A program made the translations under genes and the position numbers. Shown here piece after piece: positions 44,236 through 61,738 of a stretch of 64,000 nt of DNA. Location of the stretch: contig JAFGVU010000003.1 in the NCBI GenBank assembly GCA_016937855.1, positions 50,541 through 114,540 on the forward strand, in the 5' to 3' direction. How positions within the stretch are numbered: position 1 is the stretch's first letter; every line of letters starts with the position of its first letter. The notes under the pieces are model-generated. The model did not search any database, had not been told where the DNA came from, and saw only the letters and a program-made list of their open reading frames with translations. The stretch comes from Bacteroidales bacterium (GTDB lineage Bacteria; Bacteroidota; Bacteroidia; Bacteroidales; ML635J-15).

Positions 44236-44367
44236 TCCTACTACAACACCTGATATAAAAATAATGGTAGAACCAAATTGATTATTTTACTGTTTTTTTC
44301 AACTCAGATATAATTTTAAAGAAAAAAACTAAAATAGTTTTTAAATTTGCCCATAAATCTTAAAGAA

Positions 44368-46738: not shown

Positions 46739-48298
46739 ATGAGAACCAGCAAATTAGGATTAGATTTTACCAAAGTTGACGAAGCAAAAAAACTTGCAGG
46801 AAATATTGCTGACGATGTTCAGAAGTTTGTTGAGAATTACACAACTGTTTCTGTAGAGCGTACACTTTGTCGATTAATTGGAATTGATGGCATAGATAAG
46901 AATGATGTTCCATTGCCAAATGTTGTAGTGAATCAGTTGCACGAGAATGGTGCAACCGGACAAGGCGTTTTGTATTATATCGGAAATTCGATGATAGAAA
47001 CAGGTTTAACACCTCAGCAATTGTCCGAAAAAATTGCTATTGGCGAGTACGATCTTACAAAAGCGAAGATTAATAATTTAGATGAAATTAAGGCTGCAAT
47101 AATGCCTTTAGTTAATGAAGGGATATCAAAGATCAAATCAAATGTTGCCAAACGAAACGATTATTTAACAAATCTTGGCGAAGGAGCAAAACCGTATTTG
47201 TATGTGATCGTAGCAACAGGTAATATATATGAGGATGTTGTGCAAGCACAGGCTGCCGCTCGTCAAGGTGCGGATGTGATTGCAGTTATTCGTACAACAG
47301 GACAGAGTTTGCTCGATTATGTTCCGTATGGTGCCACAACCGAAGGTTTTGGAGGAACATTTGCCACTCAGGAGAATTTTAGAATTATGCGTAAAGCACT
47401 CGACGAGGTTGGCGAAGAAGTTGGCAAGTATATCCGTCTTTGTAATTACTGTTCAGGTTTATGTATGCCCGAAATTGCTGCAATGGGGGCACTGGAGAGA
47501 CTGGATGTAATGCTGAATGATGCTCTTTATGGCATTCTTTTTCGTGATATAAATATGCAGCGTACTATGGTTGACCAATATTTTTCCCGAATTATTAACG
47601 GTTTTGCAGGTGTAATCATAAATACAGGTGAAGATAATTATCTTACTACTGCCGATGCTTTTGAACAAGCACATACTGTTTTGGCATCCGACTTAATTAA
47701 CGAACAACTTGCACTTCTCGCAGGTATGCCCGAAGAACAAATGGGATTGGGACATGCTTTTGAAATGCACCCCGACCTTGAAAATGGCTTTTTGTATGAG
47801 CTGGCTCAAGCTCAAATGCTTAGAGAAATCTTTCCTAAAGCAACCCCAAAATATATGCCTCCAACTAAATTTATGACAGGTAATATTTTTAAAGGTCAAA
47901 TACAAAACGCATTGTTTAATGAAATTTCAATCTGGACAGGACAAGGGATTCAACTTTTAGGAATGATTACCGAAGCTGTTCATACTCCATTTATGTCCGA
48001 CAGATATCTTGCCATCGAAAATGCTCAGTATATTTTTAATAATATGAAAAATATTGGCGATGAAGTTGAGTTTAAACAAGATGGGATTATTCAAAACAGA
48101 GCTAAAAAAGTTCTGGATGATGCGTATTTGCTTTTAAGCGAAATAGAAAAAGAAGGATTGTTTAATGCTTTGGAAAAAGGAATTTTTGCTGATGTCAAAA
48201 GACCAAAAAATGGTGGTAAGGGACTAGCAGGAGTGGTAGCAAAAACCGAAAATTACTTTAATCCGTTTATAAACTTGATGAAAGGAGAGCAATTATAA
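46739..48298 (+). CDS. kamD: D-lysine/beta-lysine 5,6-aminomutase alpha subunit
   Basis: 519 aa. The N-terminus ...LDFTKVDEAKKLAGNIADDVQKFVENYTTVSVERTLCRLIGIDG matches my recollection of KamD. It is paired with a 262-aa B12-binding subunit. Confidence 0.8.
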   Translation: MRTSKLGLDFTKVDEAKKLAGNIADDVQKFVENYTTVSVERTLCRLIGIDGIDKNDVPLPNVVVNQLHENGATGQGVLYYIGNSMIETGLTPQQLSEKIAIGEYDLTKAKINNLDEIKAAIMPLVNEGISKIKSNVAKRNDYLTNLGEGAKPYLYVIVATGNIYEDVVQAQAAARQGADVIAVIRTTGQSLLDYVPYGATTEGFGGTFATQENFRIMRKALDEVGEEVGKYIRLCNYCSGLCMPEIAAMGALERLDVMLNDALYGILFRDINMQRTMVDQYFSRIINGFAGVIINTGEDNYLTTADAFEQAHTVLASDLINEQLALLAGMPEEQMGLGHAFEMHPDLENGFLYELAQAQMLREIFPKATPKYMPPTKFMTGNIFKGQIQNALFNEISIWTGQGIQLLGMITEAVHTPFMSDRYLAIENAQYIFNNMKNIGDEVEFKQDGIIQNRAKKVLDDAYLLLSEIEKEGLFNALEKGIFADVKRPKNGGKGLAGVVAKTENYFNPFINLMKGEQL

Positions 48299-49086
48299 TG
48301 AGTGGTGGATTATATTCAATGGATCAACATGATTTTGATCAAACATTAGACCTTAAAAATGTAAAACCATACGGCGACACAATGAATGATGGTAAAACTC
48401 AACTTAGTTTTACTTTGCCTGTTACTTGTAATGACGAAGCTATCGAAGCAGCTAAACAACTAATGAAAAAAATGGGTTTCGAAAATCCACAAGTTGTTTT
48501 TTACAAAGAGCTTACAAAAGGTTTTACTTTTTTTAATTGTTATGGATCTTGCTCGCATACTGTAGATTTTACTGCTATTAATGTTCCAAAAGTAGAATCA
48601 ACTGTATGGGATATGAAAGAAACCGACATGTTTGTAAAAGAGAATATTGGTCGAAAAATAACCGTTATAGGTGCAAGTACCGGTACTGATGCTCATACTG
48701 TTGGAATTGATGCAATTATGAACATGAAAGGTTATGCCGGGCATTATGGCTTGGAGAGATACGAAATGTTTGAGGCTCTTAATATGGGCTCGCAGGTATT
48801 AAACGAAGATTTTATTGCTAAAGCTATAGAACTCAATGCTGATGCTTTATTGGTTTCACAAACTGTAACACAAAAAGATGTACATATTAAAAATCTTACT
48901 GAGCTTGTCGAAATGCTAGAAGCCGAAGGATTACGCGATAAAGTTATTCTTATTTGTGGCGGTCCACGTATTTCGCACGAGTTAGCAAAAGAACTCGGTT
49001 ATGATGCAGGTTTTAGCATGAATTCTTATGCTAATGATGTTGCAAGTTACATCGCACAGGAATTACATCGAAGACAAAATAAATAA
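48298..49086 (+). CDS. kamE: D-lysine/beta-lysine 5,6-aminomutase beta subunit (B12- and PLP-binding)
   Basis: Its start overlaps the kamD stop (TAATG). B12-binding DxHxxG motif in GASTGTDAHTVGIDAI. Rossmann-like C-terminal half with ILICGGPRISHELAKELGYD. Confidence 0.8.
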   Translation: MSGGLYSMDQHDFDQTLDLKNVKPYGDTMNDGKTQLSFTLPVTCNDEAIEAAKQLMKKMGFENPQVVFYKELTKGFTFFNCYGSCSHTVDFTAINVPKVESTVWDMKETDMFVKENIGRKITVIGASTGTDAHTVGIDAIMNMKGYAGHYGLERYEMFEALNMGSQVLNEDFIAKAIELNADALLVSQTVTQKDVHIKNLTELVEMLEAEGLRDKVILICGGPRISHELAKELGYDAGFSMNSYANDVASYIAQELHRRQNK

Positions 49087-49093
49087 ATATATT

Positions 49094-49756
49094 ATGATGG
49101 ATAAATATCAAATACGCGAGGTTATCGCTAGACGTGTTGCTCTTGAGCTTCAAGACGGAGACGTAGTGAATCTGGGGATTGGATTACCAACTCTGGTTCC
49201 AAATTATTTGCCCAAAGGTATTAAACTTACTCTGCAAAGCGAAAATGGTTTGCTTGGAATGGGGCCTTCGCCAGAACCAGGTAAAGAAGATGATGATATG
49301 GTCAATGCCGGTGGCGGATATATTACTGCATTTGATGGTGCTGCAGCGTTTGACTCTGCAAAGTCATTTGCAATTATTAGGGGCGGACATGTTGACGTAA
49401 CAGTATTAGGTGCAATGCAGGTTGATGTCAATGGAGACCTCGCTAACTGGTCTATCCCCGGAAAATTAACACCGGGTATGGGTGGTGCAATGGATTTGCT
49501 AACAGGTGCTCGTCGTGTTATTTTGGCAATGGAACACACTGCTAAAGGTAGCCATAAAATCCTAAATAAATGCAACTTGCCTCTAACCGCTAAAGGTCAG
49601 GTTAATACAATTGTGACTGAAATGGGAGTGATGGAAATCGAAAATGGTATGATTATCTTAAAAGAGATAAATCCTTTGTTTACCGTTGAGCAAGTGCAGG
49701 AAGCAACTGAAGCTAAACTAATAGTTGCAGAAGATTTGCAGGAAATGAAATCATAA
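49094..49756 (+). CDS. atoA: 3-oxoacid (acetoacetate) CoA-transferase subunit B
   Basis: REVIARRVALELQDGDVVNLGIGLPTLVPNYLP...LQSENGLLGMGP...VNAGG...IRGGHVDVTVLGAMQVD..GDLANW..PGK...GMGGAMDL is collinear with E. coli AtoA, including the catalytic Glu of SENG. The track start 49028 overlaps kamE; the ATG at 49094 is more likely. Confidence 0.85.
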   Translation: MMDKYQIREVIARRVALELQDGDVVNLGIGLPTLVPNYLPKGIKLTLQSENGLLGMGPSPEPGKEDDDMVNAGGGYITAFDGAAAFDSAKSFAIIRGGHVDVTVLGAMQVDVNGDLANWSIPGKLTPGMGGAMDLLTGARRVILAMEHTAKGSHKILNKCNLPLTAKGQVNTIVTEMGVMEIENGMIILKEINPLFTVEQVQEATEAKLIVAEDLQEMKS

Positions 49757-49788
49757 GTTTATAGATGTAATTATAAAAAAAATAAGTT

Positions 49789-50994
49789 ATGAGTAAAGTA
49801 TTTATAGTAGCAGCCAAACGTACTGCAATCGGAAAATTTGGTGGTGCTCTTACAAATTTAAACGCCTCGGAAATTGCAGCCGAAGTAATTAAAAATATTA
49901 TTGCTGAAACAAAGATAGATGCTTCTAAAATTGACGAGGTAATTGTTGGGAATATTCTTTCCGCCGGTCAGGGACAAGGTGTTGCTCGTCAGGCATCAAT
50001 TAAAGGTGGAATTCCAACCGAAGTTCCGGCATACTCGTTAAATATGGTATGTGGTTCTGGTATGAAAGCAATTGCAAATGCTTTTACTTCGATAAAGGCA
50101 GGAGAATCAAAACTCGTTCTTGCAGGTGGAACTGAGAATATGTCCAGTGCACCTTTTTTAATGCCGGGGCAAATCAGATCGGGTTATAAAATGGGAAATA
50201 TATCATCTGTTGACCATATGATTAACGATGGACTATGGGATGCCTTTAATAATTATCACATGGGTATTACTGCCGAAAATATTGCAGAAAAGTATAGTAT
50301 TACCCGCGAAGAACAAGATGGATTTTCAGCTGCATCTCAAACTAAGGCTGCAAATGCACAGGATAATGGTAAATTTAAGAATGAAATAGTTCCGGTAAAC
50401 ATTGTTACTAGAAAAGAAACCATAGTGTTTGATGCAGACGAACATTTAAATAGAGGGACTACTGTCGAAAAACTTGCAAAATTGCGCCCTGCATTTAAAA
50501 AGGATGGAACCGTTACTGCCGGAAATGCTTCTGGCATTAATGATGGAGCTTCTTTTGTTCTTATTGCAGGCGAAGATACAGTAAAAGAACTTGGTCTAAA
50601 ACCATTGGTCGAGATTGTTTCGGTTGGACAAGGTGGAGTTGATCCTTCAATAATGGGAATGGGGCCCGTTCCGGCAATTAAAAGTGCATTGTGCAAAGCA
50701 AGTATGAAACTTACTGATATCGATGTGTTCGAATTAAACGAAGCATTTGCTGCTCAATCATTAGGCGTTATGAAACAGCTTTCCGAAGATCATGGCGTTG
50801 ATGCAAAATTCTTTGAAGAAAGATGCAATAAAAACGGTGGAGCTATAGCGCTTGGACATCCAATCGGTGCATCTGGAAACAGAATTGTAGTATCTCTTAT
50901 TCACGAAATGAAACGCGAAAACGATACATTTGGTCTGGCTTCTTTATGTATTGGAGGCGGAATGGGAACTGCAATTATTTTACGTAATGTATAA
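49789..50994 (+). CDS. Acetyl-CoA C-acetyltransferase (thiolase II)
   Basis: MSKVFIVAAKRTAIGKFGG, active-site NMVCGSGMKA, GHPIGASGNRI and CIGGGMGTA. Length is 401 aa. Confidence 0.92.
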   Translation: MSKVFIVAAKRTAIGKFGGALTNLNASEIAAEVIKNIIAETKIDASKIDEVIVGNILSAGQGQGVARQASIKGGIPTEVPAYSLNMVCGSGMKAIANAFTSIKAGESKLVLAGGTENMSSAPFLMPGQIRSGYKMGNISSVDHMINDGLWDAFNNYHMGITAENIAEKYSITREEQDGFSAASQTKAANAQDNGKFKNEIVPVNIVTRKETIVFDADEHLNRGTTVEKLAKLRPAFKKDGTVTAGNASGINDGASFVLIAGEDTVKELGLKPLVEIVSVGQGGVDPSIMGMGPVPAIKSALCKASMKLTDIDVFELNEAFAAQSLGVMKQLSEDHGVDAKFFEERCNKNGGAIALGHPIGASGNRIVVSLIHEMKRENDTFGLASLCIGGGMGTAIILRNV

Positions 50995-51063: not shown

Positions 51064-54003
51064 TTACTCCTTAAACTTAACATTAAAGGCATTTCTTCCT
51101 AAAAATGTCCTTACTAATCTAAATCCAACGCAGTCAGAGGGTGTTCCATCCCAATTCTCTTCATTTTGAATTTGAATGAAATATGCCCCGCTTGCCCATG
51201 AACCACCTTTTGTTTTATCCGGAGTTATTATCATCTCAGCAGCATTTCCACAAACATCTAAAAGTCCCCATTCATTTTCGGTAAAGCTGGCAATCAGATT
51301 TGGGCTATTGGGATTATACCAATTACTGTCTGATTTATGTTCAGTGAATTCCGAATTTTGATTTTTAACAATTTCATCAAATACAAGTTTATCTATTTGC
51401 TTTGTTTTACTTGTATCTCCTAAAAGTTTATTCTCCTCCCAAATGTTTGTTCTGAATTTTGCAAGAAAAGAACCTTTATAATTTCTAGTATATGGACCAC
51501 CCCAGGCATAAGGAACACTTTGTAAGCCTCCAGCAGCCATATACTCGTATTCTGCTTCAGTTGGCAACCTAAACTCAACATAGTATTCACTGTCTGAACT
51601 TTTTGGATTAGTCATTTTTGTAAACCAAACAGCAAATAGCTTAGCAGCTTTGTGGCTAATTCCTACAACAGGTTCAAATGCGAAAAACGTAACAGGTATC
51701 TCCTTGATATTGTTATCAGAAATAAACTTTTTGGTAAAAGGTAAATATTTGTAGAGGTCTGTTTTGTCAAATTCTTGATTCAATAATACAGTGTCAGTTT
51801 CAAGATTCATTTTTACTTTCCAAAGTGGATCATTGGGTATGCAAATAGCTAAATCTTCATTCATATTGTTTTCTATCAGATAATTTAAGAATATTAACCA
51901 TGTGAAGTTGCAGACTTCTGTTTGCATAGCCCAGAAACCTTGAACAGTTGTTGTAGAGTCTTTATATTTGAAACTTCCTGGTGGTATAAACTTAAATCCT
52001 TCGGGATCAGGTGTGTAGTTGGGCTTATGTGTTACTTCCAAAAGAGAGTAGTCAATTGAAGGCATATTGCGACCGAGAATCTCTATTTTTCTCATTGCTT
52101 TTTCCTGATCTTTTAGTCTAACTCTTACAACATACCTGAATCCTAGAGTGGAGTGCTGCTCGTCAGGGTTTATAAAACATTTTGCAAAAATTGCATTTGA
52201 TGTATAATATACTTTATCAATTTTGCGATTGTCAAACCAGTTTAGCCCTCTTACCATTTTACCATTATGATTATTTCGAGTGCTATCAAAATATTCCTCA
52301 GTTAATTTTAATATTTTATCGCCAGGATTTTTGCTGGTTTCAAGTAATTCAATATTTTTTTGTCTATATGTTGCCCATGTATTAATATAGTCTTCCTTTA
52401 TCCATTCAGAGACATTGCCATTTAGGTTTTTTATTTCAGTTGAATTCCCTGAAACTATATATCTGTCACTAGTTACAAGTGTTGGCTGTTCGAAATCTAT
52501 TCTATCTCCATTATTTCTATTACCAATACTTCTTGTATAATTAAAGTCATTTTTATAAACAAGATCAAGATCGCAAATAATCCGATCTGAACTAATACCA
52601 ATACCTGCAAATCTTAGAACTTCATCTCCTGCAAGCTCCCATTCGTAATCATGGGGTAAGTCAAAGGTAATATGATATAAAATTCCTTGTTCATCTATTC
52701 TAGTTTGCCACATACATGTCATCCAGTCCAAGTAGGCCAAAGCTTGCCAATAACTAATTCCGACTACTGGATACATATTGTATGCCGGATGAAAAAAATA
52801 ATACTTGTTCATTAATGTTTGATATGTGAGTGTGTAGTCAGCTTCCCAACAATCAGTTTTTGGAAACACATTTAAAGTATTGCTCCCAAATTTTGCTTGA
52901 ATTTCGATATTTGGTTGATGAAAAGTGTAAGTAAAATATCGCATATCATCTTCTGATAATGTGCTATCAATATTGATGTCTTCTTTTCCATTGTATTTTA
53001 ACACATAATATAAAAACTCTTTATATTCAATATTACTGACTTCTGTATTTGAAATGTAAAATGGTTGTAATCTGTTGATGTTTTCAGTGCTCAGTTCTAT
53101 TTTGTTTTCATTAAATAGGTTTTCATTAACATAATATCGTAATCCTTCTGGTAGGGATATTTGAGAGGGCTTTTTCTGAATATCAGTTGGGATTTCTTTG
53201 TGCCTTTTTGCTAATGAAATGTATGTGCAGTTTTCGAATCCTTTCTTGAAGGGAAATCCACAATGTACTGGTAGCATAAAGATGTTTTTGTTAAAGTATT
53301 CTTGTAATGATGAATCTGATTTTTCAGGATCATGCAAAAAGTCATTCCATCGAAAAAATTCTGTTGCATAGGAAGTCAATATTAGCTCTCCTGGATAGAT
53401 ACTAACTTCAGGTTGATCTTTTAGTAGTTCTTTTGCATATTCTGGATCAAAGTCTTCATAATACCAAGAGCCATATTTTGGTGTTATAGTATTCTTTTGC
53501 CATGGACTATCAACATCTTTTGACTCAATATCTCCATCTTTAATTTTAGCAGTGTCTTTTATTGTAATATGTTTTGTTTGAGATTGAATGATTTCTTTTT
53601 TTTCTGTTTTGTCTATTTTTAAAGTATCTGTTATGATTTCTTTAGAGGTATCTTTTAAAATAGTAGGAGGGACTAGGTTAAGATTAGGATTATTTCCTAT
53701 TATTGTTACTGGCTTGTTACTTATCTGATTTATAATAAAAATTATCAAAACTGAAACAACTCCAATAATTAGTAATACTCTTAGGTAATAGGAAACAGAT
53801 TTGCTTTTTGATTGAATTAGTTGTGTTATCTTTTCGTTAACCTTGTGCTCTAAACCTTGTTCCACGGGCATTGACATAACATAATTTGCATTCATAGTGA
53901 CAGATTTTTTAATTTCGACATTAGTTTCAAAATCAGAAACAATAGCTTCTAGAAGGAGGCTTTCAAAAGCATCAGGTATCATATCTTTTTTAGTTCTATT
54001 CAT
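51064..54003 (-). CDS. Membrane-anchored 979-aa protein with two FGE-sulfatase/SUMF1-like domains; candidate anti-sigma/signal-sensing partner of the upstream ECF sigma
   Basis: About 70-aa cytoplasmic N-terminus and a single TM helix (YYLRVLLIIGVVSVLIIFIINQI, aa about 72-93). Two modules carry FGE-family hallmarks. Module 1 has FYISNTEVSNIEYKEFL, YPVVGISYWQALAYLDWM, FDLPHDYEWELAG, NGNVSEWIKEDY and GFRYVVRV. Module 2 has WAMQTEVCNFTW, PVVGISHKAAKLFAVWF, FRLPTEAEYEYMAAGG, GLLDVCGNAAEMI, KGGSWAS and GFRLVRT. Its ATG overlaps the sigma gene stop by 8 nt. Confidence 0.7.
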   Translation of the reverse strand: MNRTKKDMIPDAFESLLLEAIVSDFETNVEIKKSVTMNANYVMSMPVEQGLEHKVNEKITQLIQSKSKSVSYYLRVLLIIGVVSVLIIFIINQISNKPVTIIGNNPNLNLVPPTILKDTSKEIITDTLKIDKTEKKEIIQSQTKHITIKDTAKIKDGDIESKDVDSPWQKNTITPKYGSWYYEDFDPEYAKELLKDQPEVSIYPGELILTSYATEFFRWNDFLHDPEKSDSSLQEYFNKNIFMLPVHCGFPFKKGFENCTYISLAKRHKEIPTDIQKKPSQISLPEGLRYYVNENLFNENKIELSTENINRLQPFYISNTEVSNIEYKEFLYYVLKYNGKEDINIDSTLSEDDMRYFTYTFHQPNIEIQAKFGSNTLNVFPKTDCWEADYTLTYQTLMNKYYFFHPAYNMYPVVGISYWQALAYLDWMTCMWQTRIDEQGILYHITFDLPHDYEWELAGDEVLRFAGIGISSDRIICDLDLVYKNDFNYTRSIGNRNNGDRIDFEQPTLVTSDRYIVSGNSTEIKNLNGNVSEWIKEDYINTWATYRQKNIELLETSKNPGDKILKLTEEYFDSTRNNHNGKMVRGLNWFDNRKIDKVYYTSNAIFAKCFINPDEQHSTLGFRYVVRVRLKDQEKAMRKIEILGRNMPSIDYSLLEVTHKPNYTPDPEGFKFIPPGSFKYKDSTTTVQGFWAMQTEVCNFTWLIFLNYLIENNMNEDLAICIPNDPLWKVKMNLETDTVLLNQEFDKTDLYKYLPFTKKFISDNNIKEIPVTFFAFEPVVGISHKAAKLFAVWFTKMTNPKSSDSEYYVEFRLPTEAEYEYMAAGGLQSVPYAWGGPYTRNYKGSFLAKFRTNIWEENKLLGDTSKTKQIDKLVFDEIVKNQNSEFTEHKSDSNWYNPNSPNLIASFTENEWGLLDVCGNAAEMIITPDKTKGGSWASGAYFIQIQNEENWDGTPSDCVGFRLVRTFLGRNAFNVKFKE

Positions 54004-54508
54004 GATTTACCTCCATTTTTAAAGTCATTTTCTCTGTTATTTTCCTTTTTAATCTTGCGTAATAAACTTTTAACTGGTTTTCGGGTTTGTCAATGTATTT
54101 TGCAATTTCACTATATGGCATCTGTTGAGCCTTTAGTAGTAATAGCATGCGTTCCCAGTCTTCAAGTTTTGCAAGTTCTTCATTGAGAAGCTGCAATTTG
54201 GCTGATTCTGTTTGTTCCTGATCGTCATCAGAAAAAGCAGGATGAAGCTTAATGTTTTCCTCCGGGACAATCTCAATTTGTTTTTTTATATCCCGATAAT
54301 GATTCCTAAGATTATTTAGAAACGACACCAAAACAAAGGATGCAAACTTTTCCTCATTCTTAAAATTGTATTTGTCAATTTGTTTGCTAATCTTTTCATA
54401 TGTCTTATAAATTAATTCCCAGGCTGTATCTTCATCTGTTTGCCAGTTTTTTAACGAATATGCAAGAAGTTGTTTCCCATATCTCAGATAAAAGGATTCA
54501 AGACCCAT
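53996..54508 (-). CDS. ECF-type RNA polymerase sigma-70 family factor
   Basis: Region 2-like (FYLRYGKQLLAYSLKNW...DTAWELIYKTYEKI...FASFVLVSFLNNLRNHYRD) and region 4-like HTH (LEDWERMLLLLKAQQMPYSEIAKYIDKPENQLKVYYARLKRKI). ATG 54508 is preferred; the ORF track extends to TTG 54598. Confidence 0.75.
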   Translation of the reverse strand: MGLESFYLRYGKQLLAYSLKNWQTDEDTAWELIYKTYEKISKQIDKYNFKNEEKFASFVLVSFLNNLRNHYRDIKKQIEIVPEENIKLHPAFSDDDQEQTESAKLQLLNEELAKLEDWERMLLLLKAQQMPYSEIAKYIDKPENQLKVYYARLKRKITEKMTLKMEVNHE

Positions 54509-54749
54509 ATCCGGATTCTCTCTGATTATTATGTGAGTTTCTTTCTGCACTTTAATTCGTTTTTGCCCTCTATTAGTTATAACACATTTAGGTAACAAAA
54601 ATATATTAGTTTTATTATTGGCACTAAAGTATTATGAAATTTTTACCGTTTCCTAACTCAACTCAACCGTTAACTCAAAACCACTTTTAATCAGAGGGTT
54701 TTGGCTATAGTTTTGTTCCTAGTAATTAAAACGTTTAAAAATTATAACT

Positions 54750-55245: not shown

Positions 55246-56700
55246 ATGAAAAATCTTATGAAAATTAAAACATTTGTAATTGTATTAGCATTACAATTCA
55301 TTGCATTATTTGCAATATCACAAACAGCAAAGTTTAATTATCAGGCTGTTGTTAGAGATAATTTAGGAAACCCGCTGGTAAATGCAATGGTGGATATTGA
55401 TGTGCGTATCTTACAGGGGGCAGTTGATGGAACAGAAGTTTTTGCAGAAAATCATCAAGCAGAAACAAATGCATTTGGTTTAGTTACATTGCAGGTTGGC
55501 TCTATAGAGGATTTAAGTGTTGTAGATTGGAGTGCCGACACATATTTCTTTGAAGTTACGGTAGATGATGAGTTGATGGGAACAAGCCAGCTTTTAAGCG
55601 TTCCTATGGCTGTGTCTGCAACTTATGCAGAAAATTATGATGAGTCTGACCCTTTGTATTCAATGGCACCTGCAAGCATAATAACAAATGATGACATCAA
55701 CGATTGGTCAGCAGCTTATTCTTGGGGAGATCATTCAGGTTTATACCTACCTTCTGACTATACTCCAGAATTAGAAGAAACAGATCCTTTATATAGTACT
55801 GCTCCTGCAAGTACAATCACAAATGATGATATCAGCGATTGGTCAACAGCTTATTCATGGGGAGATCATAGTGGTTTATATTTACCTTCTGATTATACTC
55901 CTGATTATTCTAACCTTGTTAATCTAACTGATGATCAAGTTATTGCAGGAACAAAGACTTTTACAGGAACTGTTGTAGTGCCAACTCCTGTAAACGAATA
56001 CGATGCAGTACCAAAAGAGTATGTTGATGCGCTTTTAGATAGGTTGCTTGAACTTGAATTAGCAACAGGATTAAAAGTTCAGGATATAGACGGCAATCTA
56101 TATAGTACTGTTACACTCGGAACACAGGTGTGGATGCAGGAAAATTTAAAAACAACTAAGTATCGTAACAATACTGATATTCAATTCATAAATGATAATG
56201 CAACATGGAACTCAAATACAGATGCAGCTTATTGCCAAGCGTATCATGTTCCATCAAACGGAGATATCTATGGTAATCTTTACAATTGGGAAGCAGTTAA
56301 TACAGGTATGCTATGTCCAGAGGGTTGGCATGTCCCAACATCTGTTGAATGGCAGGAGCTGATGACATGGTTAGAAGATAATGGATTTGGTTATGGTGGT
56401 AGCGGTGCCGAGGTTGCTAAATCTTTGTCAAGTCAGGATTACTGGTATTCTGGAGGCACAACTGAGGGTACTGTAGGATGGCAAACACATTTAAATAATA
56501 GCTCAACTTTTGATGCCAGACCTGGAGCATTTATGAGAGGCTTTAATGATACGCCAGGATATGAAGTATATTTTTGGGCATCAAATGAATCAAATGCGAC
56601 TAATGCATATAAAGCTTCATGGACTTATTATAGTACAACTCCAAACCTCGGAACAAGTCAAAAGTTTTATGGCTTTTCTGTCAGGTGTCTAAAAGATTAA
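55246..56700 (+). CDS. Secreted chimera: N-terminal beta-domain, tail-fibre-like repeats/collar motif, and a C-terminal Fibrobacter succinogenes major paralogous (FISUMP) domain
   Basis: Signal peptide, then FNYQAVVRDNLGNPL...HQAETNAFGLVTLQVGS. Two 45-aa tandem repeats (DPLYS.APAS.ITNDDI.DWS.AYSWGDHSGLYLPSDYTP). Tail-fibre collar-like IAGTKTFTGTVVVPTPVNEYDAVPKEYVDAL. FISUMP hallmarks are GTQVWMQENLKTTKY, YGNLYNWEAV, CPEGWHVPTSVEWQEL and GFSVRCLKD. Confidence 0.7.
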   Translation: MKNLMKIKTFVIVLALQFIALFAISQTAKFNYQAVVRDNLGNPLVNAMVDIDVRILQGAVDGTEVFAENHQAETNAFGLVTLQVGSIEDLSVVDWSADTYFFEVTVDDELMGTSQLLSVPMAVSATYAENYDESDPLYSMAPASIITNDDINDWSAAYSWGDHSGLYLPSDYTPELEETDPLYSTAPASTITNDDISDWSTAYSWGDHSGLYLPSDYTPDYSNLVNLTDDQVIAGTKTFTGTVVVPTPVNEYDAVPKEYVDALLDRLLELELATGLKVQDIDGNLYSTVTLGTQVWMQENLKTTKYRNNTDIQFINDNATWNSNTDAAYCQAYHVPSNGDIYGNLYNWEAVNTGMLCPEGWHVPTSVEWQELMTWLEDNGFGYGGSGAEVAKSLSSQDYWYSGGTTEGTVGWQTHLNNSSTFDARPGAFMRGFNDTPGYEVYFWASNESNATNAYKASWTYYSTTPNLGTSQKFYGFSVRCLKD

Positions 56701-56720: not shown

Positions 56721-56756
56721 AAATGGCTGTCTGTTAAATAGGTGGCCATTTTTTTA
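56721..56756 (+). terminator. Possible terminator between the convergent FISUMP and radical SAM genes
   Basis: AAATGGC-(17-nt loop)-GCCATTT followed by a T run. The loop is long and the stem is only 7 bp. Confidence 0.3.
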
Positions 56757-58196
56757 TTCCCCAAACTTCCCAATTTCAACAAATTGATAAATCCTTTCGC
56801 GAATTTCATTTGCAGTTTCTGTATTTGCAATTGAAATTACCTCTTCGGATTTTAAAGCCTTTATGTTTTCTATACCCTGATCAGAAACCATGAAATCGAT
56901 ATTTTCGAAATTAAAAACTTCTTCGATAGATCTTTGGATGTGAATGTCTTCTTTTATTAGTTTGGATAGTTCTTTTTTGAGCTTATCAGTGGAGTACTGG
57001 TGCCTTTTCTTAAAATATAGACCTTCGTTATATTTCTCCAGATACCAACTCTCTATTTGGGTTTTCAAGTTTTTAAAGAATCTGATATTTCGTTTTGCAA
57101 TTATGCCTCTTGATTTTAATTCGATCTTATTATAATAATTTAAAACTTCAAGTAACTCACTCTCTTTCATCTGCGATATAGCAAATCCTTCTGTGTAAAC
57201 AGTATTGAAGTAAATAAAAATCTTTTTCTTATTGCAAAATTCAACAATCTCTGGAATTTCATCCCAATTCTGTTGCATGGGGCACACCGAAAGATTTACA
57301 TAGTTGTTTTTCTCTTTTGATATAGCGATGAAATTATCTAAATTTTTGAGCACTTTATCAAGTTTTGCGTTTTTTCTTATGCTTTCGAAAGTATCTGCCT
57401 TTAACGAATCAATTGATACACCAATATAAAAGTTTCCTTTGTCTAAATATGATTGTACTTTTTCGTTAAAAACAGTTCCATTGGTTTGAAGGTTGATTTT
57501 GCATTTTGGATTAAGTTCAATAATCAAATCCCATATTTCATAATAAATGCTAATAAGAAAAGGCTCTCCGCCTAAAAATTTTGCAACTTTTAATGTTGGT
57601 ATGTATTTTTCCAGTTGTTTTAAAAATTCTTTATCGTATGGATGCTCAATGTTTTTAAGACCTTTAGCCTTTGCAATGCTGCTCGAGAATTCTTCGTGAC
57701 ACATTACACATTCTAAGTTGCAAGTATTATCTAACTCGAAAATAATTTCAGATGGGAGAGATCCTTGATCTTTTAAAGGGTCGTACAATCTTGCTTCAAC
57801 TCCTTCGAAATTCCCAGCCTCGATTAATTTATGACAATGCTGACAACCATACATGAAGTTTTGTCTGCATAGTTCTTTTTGAAGATTTGAACGCTTTTCA
57901 CCATTTACAATTTCTTCGATGCTGTTCTCAGGATATTTACCCAAAACATGAACACGATTAAAACAACACGCCGTAGCTTTTCCATGTATATCGAAATATA
58001 GACTTCGCGAAGGAGCATGGCAAACGCAAGGCTCAGGACCGGTTGTTCTACTTTTATTGTATTCAATTATTTTCTCTTTATTTCCAAATGCAGGGTTTAT
58101 GTGATTTGAAATGTCACCATATTTGCTCTTGTTTTTTAGTTTCTTTATGTATCGTTTAAGAGCTGTCTGTGAGTCATATATCTTTTTGGTAATCAA
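56754..58196 (-). CDS. Radical SAM enzyme with an N-terminal twitch/SPASM-like Cys motif (paralog B)
   Basis: CX3CX2C at aa 159-166 (DNTCNLECVMCHE; nt 57699-57722). The upstream motif C59-x12-G-x4-C77 (CHAPSRSLYFDIHGKATAC) plus C110-x7-C118-x2-C121 resembles the SPASM/twitch signature but precedes the core. There is an about 120-aa Cys-free helical tail. No in-frame ATG lies before the Cys motif, so the start must be TTG 58196, which overlaps the upstream TGA (TTGA). Confidence 0.8.
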   Translation of the reverse strand: MITKKIYDSQTALKRYIKKLKNKSKYGDISNHINPAFGNKEKIIEYNKSRTTGPEPCVCHAPSRSLYFDIHGKATACCFNRVHVLGKYPENSIEEIVNGEKRSNLQKELCRQNFMYGCQHCHKLIEAGNFEGVEARLYDPLKDQGSLPSEIIFELDNTCNLECVMCHEEFSSSIAKAKGLKNIEHPYDKEFLKQLEKYIPTLKVAKFLGGEPFLISIYYEIWDLIIELNPKCKINLQTNGTVFNEKVQSYLDKGNFYIGVSIDSLKADTFESIRKNAKLDKVLKNLDNFIAISKEKNNYVNLSVCPMQQNWDEIPEIVEFCNKKKIFIYFNTVYTEGFAISQMKESELLEVLNYYNKIELKSRGIIAKRNIRFFKNLKTQIESWYLEKYNEGLYFKKRHQYSTDKLKKELSKLIKEDIHIQRSIEEVFNFENIDFMVSDQGIENIKALKSEEVISIANTETANEIRERIYQFVEIGKFGE

Positions 58197-59638
58197 TCTT
58201 CTTCCGGTTTAAAGTTTTTACAAATCTCTTCGAGTTCTTCCAGTGTTTTATTCTCCAGATGTTCAAAGAATGTTAGCGAATCGGTTCGTAATAGTCTATT
58301 GTATATTGTTTTTATGTTTGGCTCAAATTGGAGTTTGTCCAAAAGAGTAAAAAATTTAACTTTAAATTGTGGACCTTCTTTTTCTACTCTCTCAATAATA
58401 AGAAATTTGCCTTCTGCTACTGAATATTCTTTGTTCTCATTTTTTTCTAGACCTTCTTCTTCTTTAGCCCAATTCTTAAACAGTTTTATCATATTGTGAT
58501 AGTTCTTATAGTTTGTTTTTTGCTTTACGTTTTCTTGTGGCAGCTTTTTGCTTTCCAAATCAATAATTGTGTTTTTTAGTTGCGTCTTTTCAAGATTCTT
58601 TAAAGATAACTCTTCTGGCTTTACCACAGTATGAAAATATACACATATTTCCTTTTTATTTGCAAAATCGACTAGATTGCCTAGTTCATGACGATTAATG
58701 GTCATTGGGCAAACAAGTATATTTAAGCTTGTCTTGTGTTTTCTAGAGTATTCAATAAAAATATTAATGTTTTTTAATGCAAATTCATAATTGCCATTAC
58801 GTCTGATATTTTCGTAATTTTCTTTTTCTAGTGAATCAATAGAGACATTAAAATGTATGTTGTGATGGGTTTCCAAAAGTCTCTCAATTCTTGGATTCAT
58901 AGTGTTTGCATTTGTAGTAATAAGTATATTACATTTTGGGTTTATCTTGGCAATCATTTCCCAAATTTGATAATATTCTTCAATCATAAACGGATCGCCA
59001 CCGGTAAATTCTGCAAGTTGTAAATGTGGAATAAAATCTTTTAGCTCATTTATAAATTTATCGTCATAGTATTCATTGCCGGAACTTTGATTACATGAGT
59101 CGGACGCAATCGAAGATGATAAATTTGAATCACACATTATACAAGATAGATTGCATTTGTTTGAAAGCTCAAACTCCATTATTGCAGGATATCTGCTTTT
59201 CGAAAATGCGTAATGCTCATACTTATTAATTAATAAACTGCCAAACGAATTATTTAAAATTAGTTTTGAGCAGAATTCGCAACTAGTTTTAAGCTCACAG
59301 TTTGTGTGCTCTTTCCTGATTTTTTTAAACGATCCATTAAACCATATTTCAGAAATTGTACTCTCCGAAATTGAAGAAGATTCATTGTTATAACTTGCAT
59401 AGCATGGCGAAACTTTTCCATTTCGAGCAAAAAACATACTTGTGTATGGCGCGTAACAGATATGTTTAAGTGGTCCATAAATCCTACTTTTCTGAAATTC
59501 TATAAATGAATCGTTTTTGCATTTTTTTGTAGATTTTGGTTTGAAAAAAATGAACCATAATAATCTTATATCTCGGTGAATTTCAACCGAAAGATCTTTA
59601 AAGAATTGAGGAAGTATTTTATAAATCTTGCTTATCAC
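58193..59638 (-). CDS. Radical SAM enzyme with an N-terminal twitch/SPASM-like Cys motif (paralog A)
   Basis: CX3CX2C at aa 162-169 (SNKCNLSCIMCDS; nt 59132-59155, verified by hand reverse-complement). N-terminal C61-x12-G-x4-C79 (CYAPYTSMFFARNGKVSPC) plus C114-x5-C120-x2-C123. It is collinear with paralog B. The first in-frame ATG lies after the Cys motif, so GTG 59638 is the likely start. Confidence 0.8.
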   Translation of the reverse strand: MISKIYKILPQFFKDLSVEIHRDIRLLWFIFFKPKSTKKCKNDSFIEFQKSRIYGPLKHICYAPYTSMFFARNGKVSPCYASYNNESSSISESTISEIWFNGSFKKIRKEHTNCELKTSCEFCSKLILNNSFGSLLINKYEHYAFSKSRYPAIMEFELSNKCNLSCIMCDSNLSSSIASDSCNQSSGNEYYDDKFINELKDFIPHLQLAEFTGGDPFMIEEYYQIWEMIAKINPKCNILITTNANTMNPRIERLLETHHNIHFNVSIDSLEKENYENIRRNGNYEFALKNINIFIEYSRKHKTSLNILVCPMTINRHELGNLVDFANKKEICVYFHTVVKPEELSLKNLEKTQLKNTIIDLESKKLPQENVKQKTNYKNYHNMIKLFKNWAKEEEGLEKNENKEYSVAEGKFLIIERVEKEGPQFKVKFFTLLDKLQFEPNIKTIYNRLLRTDSLTFFEHLENKTLEELEEICKNFKPEED

Positions 59639-59911
59639 TTATTTTAAATAATGTCAAATTTACAAAAAACATTGTTAAAACATGCCATCCAAAATTAGAA
59701 ACAAATAAAATACTAATTCAACGAGTATGCCTTGTCAAAGCTAAATAAGCCCGTATAGTTTGTGTTTAGCACGCTTCCAACATTATGTTTTATTGTAAAA
59801 ATTTACGATTCGGGAATCATTTTTTTGTTAAAATTGTAAAATTTGGCATCAACCAAGTTCATTTTATTTATTTTTGCGCCGCAGAAAGCCACTTTGCTAT
59901 ATTTTAGATTT

Positions 59912-61738
59912 ATGAAATACTCGCTTATAAAATCACAAAAAGGAGAATTTATAGCATATTATGTTATAATTTTTGTTGTTACAACTTTTATATTGATTTT
60001 AAATTCATGTACTCTCGATAGCGAAAAATTACTAAGTTTAGGTTCAAAAAAAACCGAAATTGTAAATCGCGATTCTACCTTTTCATATTTGACAGATTTA
60101 TACAATAATGCGCCCGATTCCGCGATCATGGTTGCTTTAGAATTGGAGAATCAGTTTTTGCAAGAGAGAGACAACGCAAATCTGGTTAGGTTGTATAGTT
60201 TTTTATCTGAGATTTACCAATATCGTAAAAATGACGATTACAAAGCAATGGAATACATCATTGCTGCGATGGATGTTGTTGCTGCTAACCCGGAACTCGA
60301 ATTTGATAAAACATATCTGTATATTAATGTTGGTAATATTATGTTTAGGTATGGTCTTTTTGACGAAGCAATTTATGTTTATCGGCAAATTCCAAATATT
60401 ACAGATGCTCTGCATAAACCCAATGTTATGGCACTAATTTATAGTAACATTGCATTATCTTTTCAATCGCAAGGTTTGTGCGACTCGGCGAGGCTGTATT
60501 TTGACTATTCCGCTAGGTCAATTGCAGAAACAAAACTTAATCGCCCTATGTTGACACTCCAACACTATAATTATCAAAGTTCCTTGGCTTTAAGTTGTGA
60601 AAATATCGACTCAATTCCGTTTTATTTTAATAAAGCAATGGCAACCATAGATTTTGTAGATTATATCATAAAGATTTTGCCAACTGAATTCTCAAAACGA
60701 TATCAAAATGATATTCATATTGATTACCACACAAATCTCGTAAGGGCAATTGATAAAATGGCAGAATATTATAAGATTCGCAAAAATCCAGAAAAGGCAA
60801 TAGAATTATATACCCAAACAATTGAGGAAATTTCCGATATTAGCGAATGTATTTGGTGCCCTGAGTTGTATTATAATCTTGTTGATGCATATTTTATGGC
60901 CTCAGAACCCGACAAAGCTCTTGAATATCTCGATTCAACAGAATTAATCATTAATGGTGATGGCATCAACCATAATATGATGATTAATATATGCGCTTTA
61001 AAAGCTGAAATTTTTAATGAAATTGGAGATCTGAGCCAGGTAGCTTATTATAATGAGCAGATGTTGATTTATCGCAATAGTCTTGAAACAAGTGGAAACT
61101 CAAACGAATTGATGCTTAAAAAAATTGAGCTTGCAGTTAAGCCTGTTCAATTAGCAATGAAAAATATCGAGATTAGTAGAAGCAAAAATATTCAAACAAT
61201 TGAAATGCAAAAGTCCTTGATACAGTTTTTGCTAATTGCTTTTGTTTTTATCGCGATTACTTTGGTTGTTTATTATAGATTGTATTCTAATCTTAAAAAG
61301 ACACGCTTTCAACTTGCTGCACGTACTATCGAAAAAATAAAGCCTAATATTGAATCAGAAAGTAAAAATAAGCTAAAGGATGAAGTAGAACAAGACTTGC
61401 TTGCAAAATTTAAGTTGGAAGTAATAGATAAAAAAGCTTTCCTGGAAACAAATATCTCCTTGATTAGCATTGCCGAACGTCTTGATACTAACCGAACTTA
61501 TATTTCAAAGATTATCAATTCGGTTTATGGTATGAATTTTAACGATTATATCAACAAGCTTAGAATAACAGAAGCCTGCAACATAATCTGCAATAATACT
61601 AATCCTAATTTTACCATCGATCACCTTTATTGTGAAGTAGGTTTTGTCGGTAAATCTACGTTTTATACTGCTTTTAAAAAATATACAGGCGTTACACCTG
61701 CCGTATTTTTTAAGATGAATAATCAAGCAGTAGTATAA
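59912..61738 (+). CDS. Transmembrane one-component regulator: periplasmic TPR-like sensor, TM helix, cytoplasmic AraC/XylS-type HTH
   Basis: N-terminal anchor/lipobox-like YYVIIFVVTTFILILNSC, about 400 aa of TPR-like helical repeats, a second TM helix (LIQFLLIAFVFIAITLVVYY), and a C-terminal HTH_18-like region (ISLISIAERLDTNRTYISKIINSVYGMNFNDYINKLRI...GFVGKSTFYTAFKKYTGVTPAVFFK). The track start 59843 is TTG; the ATG is at 59912. Confidence 0.75.
   Translation: MKYSLIKSQKGEFIAYYVIIFVVTTFILILNSCTLDSEKLLSLGSKKTEIVNRDSTFSYLTDLYNNAPDSAIMVALELENQFLQERDNANLVRLYSFLSEIYQYRKNDDYKAMEYIIAAMDVVAANPELEFDKTYLYINVGNIMFRYGLFDEAIYVYRQIPNITDALHKPNVMALIYSNIALSFQSQGLCDSARLYFDYSARSIAETKLNRPMLTLQHYNYQSSLALSCENIDSIPFYFNKAMATIDFVDYIIKILPTEFSKRYQNDIHIDYHTNLVRAIDKMAEYYKIRKNPEKAIELYTQTIEEISDISECIWCPELYYNLVDAYFMASEPDKALEYLDSTELIINGDGINHNMMINICALKAEIFNEIGDLSQVAYYNEQMLIYRNSLETSGNSNELMLKKIELAVKPVQLAMKNIEISRSKNIQTIEMQKSLIQFLLIAFVFIAITLVVYYRLYSNLKKTRFQLAARTIEKIKPNIESESKNKLKDEVEQDLLAKFKLEVIDKKAFLETNISLISIAERLDTNRTYISKIINSVYGMNFNDYINKLRITEACNIICNNTNPNFTIDHLYCEVGFVGKSTFYTAFKKYTGVTPAVFFKMNNQAVV

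Follow-up and report, generated by a model that had tools for sequence, protein, structure and literature searches.

The 64,000-nucleotide stretch of contig JAFGVU010000003.1 that we analyzed (Bacteroidales bacterium, assembly GCA_016937855.1, positions 50,541 to 114,540; referred to below as the window) carries on its minus strand two adjacent genes for radical S-adenosylmethionine (SAM) enzymes, rSAM-A and rSAM-B, which are called A and B throughout. A preliminary description, made from the sequence, had presented them as tandem, collinear genes of 481 and 480 amino acids (aa) with a 4-nt TTGA overlap, and both the open reading frames (ORFs) and the sequence bore this out. The pair belongs to a catalogued but functionally blank lineage of radical SAM proteins with a permuted twitch domain, within which A and B form a conserved pair with an extra helical tail. 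The genes are placed as follows.

58193..59638, minus strand: rSAM-A, 481 aa, GTG start, with N-terminal helices, a twitch domain, a radical SAM core and a C-terminal helical domain
56754..58196, minus strand: rSAM-B, 480 aa, TTG start, with the same architecture as rSAM-A
58193..58196, minus strand: the TTGA overlap of 4 nt, which holds the start of B and the stop of A, from ORF calls and sequence

A and B are paralogues that share 32% identity over 367 aa (E 3e-62). Initiation had been assigned to two non-ATG codons, GTG 59638 and TTG 58196, and this assignment is supported by alignment with the starts of orthologues. Neither gene has an in-frame ATG ahead of the first conserved cysteine, as had been claimed; the first methionine is residue 68 in A and residue 115 in B. 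For A, an in-frame TAA lies immediately 5' of the GTG, and a DNA alignment of the window with two syntenic relatives placed this GTG exactly at the ATG of the orthologues. The N-terminal ends of orthologous proteins line up starting at residue 1 and show the pattern M-[LI]-[SN]-K-[IL]-Y-x-[IL]-L-P. The TTG of B is common to its closest orthologues at the aligned position, seven of which likewise have no ATG before the first conserved cysteine.

By eye the two genes had seemed more AT-rich than their surroundings. They are indeed marginally so, with a GC fraction of 0.303 for A and 0.321 for B against a gene mean of 0.344 +/- 0.025 (about 1.6 and 0.9 standard deviations away, over 35 window genes), but the difference carries no signal, as GC at third codon positions (GC3) and codon usage are ordinary. 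A foreign origin of the pair was considered and rejected, with GC, GC3 and codon usage all inside the distribution of the 35 window genes.

Domain architecture, conserved cysteines and family assignment

In Pfam searches both proteins matched SPASM (PF13186) over aa ~59-123 and Radical_SAM (PF04055) over aa 157-325, each above its gathering score. The PF04055 scores of 61.7 and 56.5 bits, against a threshold of 29.5, make A and B members of the radical SAM superfamily. Conservation was then read from alignments of 20 and later 247 homologues, and a profile of the family was compared with solved structures. The features that emerged are listed here.

59258..59470, minus strand: twitch domain of A, aa 57-127, with ligand candidates C61, C79, C120 and C123, from the BtrN profile alignment and cysteine conservation
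57822..58034, minus strand: twitch domain of B, aa ~55-125, with C59, C77, C118 and C121, from the Pfam SPASM match at aa 59-122, the cysteine positions and the alignment
59132..59155, minus strand: CX3CX2C motif of A (C162, C166, C169), the radical SAM [4Fe-4S] site, 100% conserved
57699..57722, minus strand: CX3CX2C motif of B (C159, C163, C166), from motif position
58709..58711, minus strand: codon of C310 of A, in the motif LVCPM at the end of a core beta-strand (strand 305-309 in the AlphaFold2 model), 89% conserved in 247 homologues
58196..58603, minus strand: helical C-terminal domain of A (aa 346-481), of low conservation, with helices throughout in the AlphaFold2 model

The coordinates first given for the CX3CX2C motifs (59155-59132 in A, 57722-57699 in B) proved exact, and the three cysteines of the motif are conserved in 100% of the 247 homologues. 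An N-terminal C-x12-G-x4-C motif, which had also been reported, is present in A and B, and its cysteines are conserved in homologues. The complete pattern is C-x12-G-x4-C ... C-x2-C, with C61 found in 98% of the 247 sequences and C79, C120 and C123 in 100% each. Two details of the preliminary description had to be given up. The set that it had written as C-x5/7-C-x2-C does not hold for the family, as the first of these cysteines (C114 in A) is shared by only 18% of homologues, and the tail that it had called cysteine-free contains C473 in A, a non-conserved residue. The CVC and ACC doublets of B are not common to the homologues either. One further cysteine stood out in the core, C310 in A and C305 in B, at the end of a beta-strand in the motif VCP[ML]; it is 89% conserved in the 247 homologues and may serve as a hydrogen-atom donor or as a ligand.

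Since only four N-terminal cysteines are conserved, the auxiliary domain is, as judged from sequence, a one-cluster twitch domain rather than half of a two-cluster SPASM domain, and it lies ahead of the barrel in a circular permutation of the usual order. In the profile comparison, aa 57-127 align to the C-terminal twitch domain of BtrN (PDB 4m7t, residues 185-259, E 7.6e-10), which was also the top overall match by way of a second stretch in the core. A and B carry the cysteine motif that defines twitch enzymes (CX9-15GX4C and a distal CX2C, three to four cysteines in all), but not in the position that defines them, as the domain covers aa 57-127 and the core aa 150-345. The seven or eight conserved cysteines of a SPASM domain, including CX2CX5CX3C, are not found; only four N-terminal cysteines are conserved. 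To our knowledge, every SPASM or twitch enzyme that has been described structurally and biochemically has its auxiliary domain after the core. The paper that introduced RadicalSAM.org likewise positions SPASM and twitch domains C-terminal to the barrel and mentions that some members of Megacluster-1-1, for which there are no structures, have conserved cysteines N-terminal to it (PMC9477430).

The AlphaFold2 model of A (mean predicted local distance difference test score 88.6, predicted template modeling score 0.76) shows N-terminal helices, a small beta-hairpin domain, a partial TIM barrel and a helical C-terminal domain. When this model was compared with the PDB by Foldseek, only the core was matched, with a query-normalized template modeling score of ~0.34, and no solved structure with the overall architecture of A was found. 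The best core matches were BlsE, SuiB, viperin, SkfB, MoaA and anSME, of which BlsE, viperin and MoaA abstract hydrogen from sugar or nucleotide rings. The C-terminal domain of A had no Pfam match and no fold match in the PDB outside the core.

The preliminary description had mentioned an NCBI protein-family model for N-terminal-twitch radical SAM proteins. Such a model exists, NF033640 (N_Twi_rSAM), and it is the best NCBIfam model for A (E 7e-44) and B (E 1e-41), although the scores of 150.5 and 143.4 bits are under its curated cutoff of 170. A and B show its domain order, with the twitch domain first and the radical SAM core second, and cover ~365 of its 398 profile positions; they differ from it by the added helical tail of ~100-135 aa. 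NF033640 is a 'subfamily' model named 'twitch domain-containing radical SAM protein', with no assigned function. Every equivalog model (MoaA, AhbD, NirJ, the anaerobic sulfatase maturase, peptide maturases, viperin, HpnH) stayed far below its cutoff and covered only the core. MoaA (TIGR02666) scored 61.7 and 70.8 bits against a cutoff of 284, viperin (NF038283) 41.9 against 180 and AhbD 48 against 500; the anaerobic sulfatase maturase (TIGR03942) matched B only, with 41 bits against 349, and no sulfatase is adjacent. A role in defense was rejected, as PADLOC returned only a pVip match of 46.5 bits to the core of B.

This is a large family: when 1.84 billion representatives were searched with a profile, at least 1,400 clusters (50% identity) came up at E <= 1e-30, of which the 150 best all scored above 418 bits. 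Source annotations are generic ('radical SAM protein', 'MoaA/NifB/PqqE/SkfB family'), and a literature search found no paper on the N-terminal-twitch radical SAM family or mentioning NF033640. The initial view of an uncharacterized radical SAM pair whose substrate is not an adjacent peptide is supported. No characterized family claims A or B, the N-terminal cysteines are conserved across homologues and the ORFs are intact in relatives; none of the outcomes named beforehand as fatal to that view was observed.

Pairing and gene neighborhoods in relatives

Genome searches found 556 relatives, the best 80 of which come almost all from metagenome-assembled genomes (MAGs) of Bacteroidota (Bacteroidales, Chitinophagales, Flavobacteriales, Saprospiraceae). 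Bit scores against A and B split A-type from B-type orthologues cleanly. A has orthologues of 44-68% identity in Bacteroidales MAGs, and directly downstream of A-type genes lie B-type orthologues of 44-76% identity. Twenty A-type loci, all of Bacteroidales, had a flank long enough to judge pairing. The B-type gene followed directly in 16 of them, with junctions from -32 to +7 nt, lay within ~5.5 kb in two and was absent from two; the junctions of the 16 orthologous pairs are consistent with coupled expression. Larger arrays (L002, L032, L033, L034 and L042) showed the order A-like radical SAM gene, 401-aa DxD protein, B-like radical SAM gene, GT32-like glycosyltransferase. Four single polypeptides contain two N-terminal-twitch radical SAM units (P0121, P0122, P0123 and P0126, with P0123 and P0126 coming from high-GC organisms), and two others, P0151 and P0185, are fusions of a UbiA-like domain with the radical SAM unit. 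The fused UbiA-like domain is of the same family as the UbiA-like neighbor described below (hhalign probability 100%, E 3.8e-47).

A and B themselves retain every catalytic motif, and both ORFs are full length. Because the pairing is conserved, two-unit fusions exist and all catalytic motifs are kept, these comparisons support the prediction that both proteins are active enzymes and that they cooperate, either as a complex or in consecutive steps.

Gene neighborhoods were compared in 85 sequences (84 loci and a 20-kb window end), whose 1,058 proteins were clustered. The N-terminal-twitch radical SAM family accounts for 216 genes in this set and reaches nine tandem paralogues in a locus. Glycan-type genes were present within 10 kb in 56 of 75 non-redundant loci, and a glycosyltransferase or Wzm/Wzt in 46 of the 75. 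This co-location with glycan and glycolipid genes is seen for the family and not for the pair in the window. The recurrent neighbors were the following.

32 loci: a 401-aa protein with an invariant DxD and weak GT8 matches
21 loci: AsnB-type glutamine amidotransferase, above the asparagine synthase equivalog cutoff
20 loci: UbiA-like membrane prenyltransferase, closest to AfUbiA and DGGGP synthase
19 loci: GT32-like protein (Gly_transf_sug)
18 loci: secreted transglutaminase/PNGase-like protein with an invariant Cys-His-Asp
15 and 8 loci: SGNH/GDSL proteins, in two clusters
13 loci: GT8-like protein
12 and 9 loci: Wzt and Wzm, respectively, of an ABC exporter
10 loci: GT-C (PMT_2)-tetratricopeptide repeat (TPR) proteins
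9 loci: NodU-like carbamoyltransferase

Sulfotransferases, PhyH dioxygenases, CMAS-type methyltransferases, B12-dependent radical SAM proteins, GT2, GT4 and epimerases of the short-chain dehydrogenase/reductase (SDR) type were also recurrent. Among co-directional direct neighbors the commonest were the DxD GT8-like protein (26), the transglutaminase/PNGase-like protein (13), SGNH proteins (9), the GT32-like protein (8), AsnB (6) and SDR epimerases (6). The tentative assignment of the 401-aa partner to the GT-A fold rests on the invariant DxD and on weak GT8 matches in 3 of 17 members. For the UbiA-like partner, a DPPR-synthase function (Rv3806c-type), with the radical SAM protein and the SDR together serving as an epimerase, stays speculative. 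The PDB matches listed for its profile comprised AfUbiA, DGGGP synthase, chlorophyll synthase and UBIAD1 and included no phosphoribosyltransferase, in a PDB copy that was not checked for Rv3806c.

Several of these genes travel together. A cassette that recurs in Chitinophagales, often near Wzm/Wzt, has the order methyltransferase, small radical SAM protein, UbiA, AsnB, (SDR), N-terminal-twitch radical SAM protein, (transglutaminase-like protein), DxD protein, SGNH protein, GT8-like protein, GT-C/TPR protein. In five loci with close A-B orthologues (L012, L015, L016, L017 and L022), the gene before A encodes a 680-aa SGNH protein and overlaps or adjoins the start of A; immediately upstream of that gene is one for a NodU-like carbamoyltransferase. 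Upstream of the close orthologues in L008 and L010 we found GT2, AsnB, the DxD protein and the transglutaminase-like protein. The largest array, in L002 (1451-15465; OY782882.1, a 4.86-Mb Bacteroidales MAG chromosome), comprises nine tandem N-terminal-twitch radical SAM paralogues in one co-directional run, with one 409-aa DxD protein interspersed, an AsnB-type amidotransferase and a transglutaminase-like gene upstream and a GT32-like gene downstream.

Small ORFs were searched for separately. The gaps flanking the pair had been reported to hold no precursor-like small ORF, and we likewise found no conserved ORF in the gaps of the window. When 781 small ORFs near the 216 family genes of the 75 loci were clustered, no conserved precursor emerged, with the limit that short or divergent ones could be missed. 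The only recurrent small ORF encodes a predicted membrane peptide of 50 aa with the pattern ...WL.PVII..L..G.L......S...PFIYT[IL]F. It occurs in four loci (L026:5952-6104, L028:3279-3431, L030:5507-5659 and L046:1665-1817), and the copies in L026 and L028 stand immediately upstream of genes for NodU-like carbamoyltransferases.

Surroundings of the pair in the window

A tblastn comparison of all 22 partner families with the window returned nothing apart from a generic ABC ATPase and one TPR match. Divergent from the pair lies a gene that is a candidate regulator of it.

59843..61738, plus strand: TPR/AraC-type (HTH_18) regulator, 631 aa from TTG 59843, from Pfam and NCBIfam matches
59655..59662, minus strand: TAAATTTG, which fits the Bacteroidetes -7 promoter box TAnnTTTG by consensus only and is placed 16 nt upstream of the GTG of A

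The same divergent arrangement with an AraC-type gene occurs in L004/L013, a Marinilabiliales MAG in which A is 60% and B 76% identical to the window pair, and in L011; it is this synteny in close relatives that makes the AraC-type gene a candidate regulator. The upstream gap of 204 bp stated in the preliminary description holds if the gene starts at TTG 59843. The public gene call for the regulator is 608 aa; by our own calculation from the ORF, such a protein would begin at an in-frame methionine, codon 24, at about nt 59912, and the gap would then be ~273 bp.

The regions upstream of A in the window, L004 and L011 have diverged save for one block, which holds TA[ACA][AT]TTTG and with it the -7 box match listed above. 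Scans of the window for the full Bacteroidetes -33/-7 pattern TTTG-N17-23-TAnnTTTG gave 5 observed against 6.5 expected occurrences, and the region upstream of A was not matched. Sigma-70-type sites were no more frequent than expected from shuffling, and a search for intrinsic terminators gave none.

Convergently downstream of the pair lie genes for a Fib_succ_major protein and a small protein with a type IX secretion system (T9SS) tail, an arrangement shared with L004/L013. A gene for a Fib_succ_major-domain protein stands just downstream of, and convergent with, N-terminal-twitch radical SAM genes in three places (window 55246-56700, plus strand; L004:12920-14497; L028:2091-3050), the last beside a more distant A-type gene of 44% identity. 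Chance may account for this recurrence, given how many such paralogues these genomes carry.

The remaining window is ordinary chromosome with GyrB, LptD, T9SS cargo proteins and lysine-fermentation genes. Four plus-strand genes at 46739-50994 resemble a module for lysine fermentation, with matches to lysine-aminomutase alpha, a subunit of OAM_dimer/B12-binding type, a CoA-transferase and a thiolase; synteny extends to L004, which has them on the opposite side of the radical SAM pair. Upstream, at 44347-46578 (plus strand), a 743-aa fusion joins a class-V aminotransferase (NifS/cysteine-desulfurase-like) to an AIR-synthase-related (SelD-like) domain. On the minus strand at 51064-54598, a 979-aa protein with an FGE-sulfatase domain overlaps by 8 nt with an upstream 200-aa sigma-70 region-4-like protein (a faint Pfam match); the FGE-sulfatase-domain gene itself (51064-54003) is not linked to the radical SAM pair in relatives. 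A further plus-strand gene, at 38439-41420, encodes a 993-aa protein with a glycoside hydrolase family 3 N-terminal domain and a beta-lactamase-family domain.

Candidate substrate and reaction of the pair

With moderate confidence, we read A and B as catalytically competent N-terminal-twitch radical SAM enzymes that act together on a non-peptide, sugar-containing intermediate of the cell envelope, most likely a glycan or glycolipid anchored in the membrane through a polyprenyl or prenyl link. A role in glycan tailoring is proposed because the relatives sit in surface-glycan and glycolipid gene clusters, and the want of a conserved small ORF suggests that the substrate is not a peptide. We infer the cluster content, substrate class and reaction type of the two enzymes as follows. 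Each protein would bind two [4Fe-4S] clusters. The cluster held by CX3CX2C would reductively cleave SAM to give the 5'-deoxyadenosyl radical, which would take a hydrogen atom from a sugar ring carbon of the substrate. The twitch cluster, fully ligated by cysteine (C61/C79/C120/C123), may sit beside the active site by analogy with BtrN, where it could accept an electron from the substrate radical and so yield a keto-sugar in a BtrN-type dehydrogenation. Alternatively, the core cysteine (C310 in A, C305 in B) might return a hydrogen atom to the opposite face, which would give an epimer. The two enzymes would carry out this chemistry at two positions or as two successive steps.

Among known systems, the pair comes closest, in its proposed mechanism, to twitch enzymes whose substrates are carbohydrate-like rings. 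By sequence, its nearest relative of solved structure is BtrN, the 2-deoxy-scyllo-inosamine dehydrogenase of the butirosin pathway (PDB 4m7t), an enzyme known to oxidize a carbohydrate-like ring and to hold an auxiliary cluster fully ligated by four cysteines. It shares with A and B the four-cysteine pattern C-x17/18-C ... C-x2-C, and both its twitch domain and its core match. However, its twitch domain follows the core, whereas that of A and B precedes it, and BtrN is a solitary protein of ~250 aa from an aminoglycoside cluster, while no 2-deoxystreptamine genes occur at A and B. The twitch radical SAM sugar epimerases NeoN and HygY combine a twitch-type auxiliary cluster with a conserved cysteine that returns a hydrogen atom to the sugar radical. 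The 89%-conserved extra core cysteine of A and B may be a point of likeness, although NeoN and HygY belong to unrelated aminoglycoside pathways. The SPASM peptide maturases SkfB and SuiB and the anaerobic sulfatase maturase anSME resemble the pair through the Pfam SPASM match and core similarity, but A and B have four rather than seven or eight conserved auxiliary cysteines, carry the domain N-terminally and have no RRE, precursor or sulfatase partner.

Several observations weigh against a glycan-tailoring pair. No partner family was found in the 64-kb window, and the pair is one of 19 'orphan' loci among the 75. The function is carried over from homologues at 30-76% identity, among which many paralogues possibly differ in substrate, and the literature search turned up no biochemical study of any family member. 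The UbiA fusions and the CMAS-type methyltransferase, PhyH and B12-dependent radical SAM neighbors would fit a lipid-tail substrate equally well.

That last point leads to the strongest rival, which we nevertheless think unlikely, namely that A and B modify the isoprenoid tail of a lipid by acting on a prenyl chain supplied by the UbiA-like prenyltransferase, for instance through C-C cross-linking, cyclization or desaturation. Its logic could be likened to that of the tetraether synthase GDGT-MAS or of HpnH. The UbiA-like genes of 20 loci and the fusions point this way, as do the closeness of the UbiA-like profile to AfUbiA and to the ether-lipid enzyme DGGGP synthase, the occurrence of HpnJ-like B12-dependent radical SAM proteins in the same loci as the methyltransferases and dioxygenases, and an N-terminal segment of ~50 aa that is helical and partly hydrophobic. 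Against it, the top direct neighbors are glycosyltransferase-like, SGNH and amidotransferase genes rather than lipid enzymes, and the close A-B orthologues sit with a carbamoyltransferase and an SGNH gene and without UbiA. GDGT-MAS (Tes; PDB 7tol) is a radical SAM enzyme that has additional Fe-S sites and acts on isoprenoid lipids of the membrane, which makes the analogy conceivable given the UbiA fusions. A relationship to this tetraether synthase was rejected all the same, as the match to 7tol had an E value of 0.11 and covered only the cluster loop; the match to HpnH was generic.

Less probable again is a pair of maturases, comparable to SkfB and SuiB, for a peptide made by the ribosome and modified after translation (RiPP) whose precursor is encoded elsewhere. 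Paired radical SAM maturases are known in RiPP systems, the SPASM-type Pfam and NCBIfam similarity extends to peptide maturases, SkfB and SuiB are among the PDB matches, and the AsnB-like and transglutaminase-like neighbors superficially recall the C and B proteins of lasso peptides. But the AsnB neighbor scores 452.7 bits against the asparagine synthase equivalog cutoff of 267 and does not reach that of the lasso cyclase, and the transglutaminase-like protein begins, by eye, with a hydrophobic N-terminus like a signal peptide. Pfam found no PqqD/RRE domain in A or B; apart from the 50-aa membrane peptide, no conserved small ORF lies near the family genes of the 75 loci; and no leader peptidase or RiPP-type transporter recurs there, the ABC system being of the Wzm/Wzt type.

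We consider it very unlikely that A and B belong to cofactor or small-molecule metabolism, with a soluble nucleotide or tetrapyrrole as substrate in the manner of MoaA, NirJ/AhbD or viperin, rather than to the envelope. MoaA, AhbD and NirJ do come second in rank among the NCBIfam matches, PADLOC and NCBIfam recognize viperin in the core, and some homologues are annotated as MoaA in databases; yet the MoaA, viperin and AhbD matches were all far under their cutoffs and confined to the core, and no molybdopterin, heme or defense genes recur in the neighborhoods. Least probable of all is a stranded remnant, a pair cut off from an ancestral glycan cluster and bereft of its role, for although no partner genes lie within 64 kb and the start of A has changed from ATG to GTG relative to its orthologues, both ORFs are full length with all conserved motifs, codon usage is ordinary, a promoter-like block is conserved upstream, and L004 and L011, with proteins 60-76% identical, have kept the partner-less arrangement with an AraC-type gene.

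Since the pair is an orphan in the window, the locus alone gives little leverage on the substrate; the functional lead, to glycan and glycolipid loci and to UbiA-like fusions, comes from relatives and goes beyond the sequence of the window. More tentatively than for the pair itself, we suggest that N-terminal-twitch radical SAM proteins may constitute a new class of radical enzymes that edit sugars in polyprenyl-linked glycans or glycolipids of the Bacteroidota envelope, through epimerization, oxidation or C-C chemistry with no known counterpart. The A/B pair would then be a core module of the class, and arrays of up to nine paralogues would diversify a chemically undescribed surface polymer. 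Radical SAM enzymes with auxiliary clusters are a major source of new enzyme chemistry. The comparative data give testable handles in the four twitch cysteines, the extra conserved cysteine, the A-B pairing and the partner genes, and the size of the family, its permuted domain order and its consistent association with envelope-glycan and UbiA genes make it a target in the search for new carbohydrate and glycolipid modifications in Bacteroidota.

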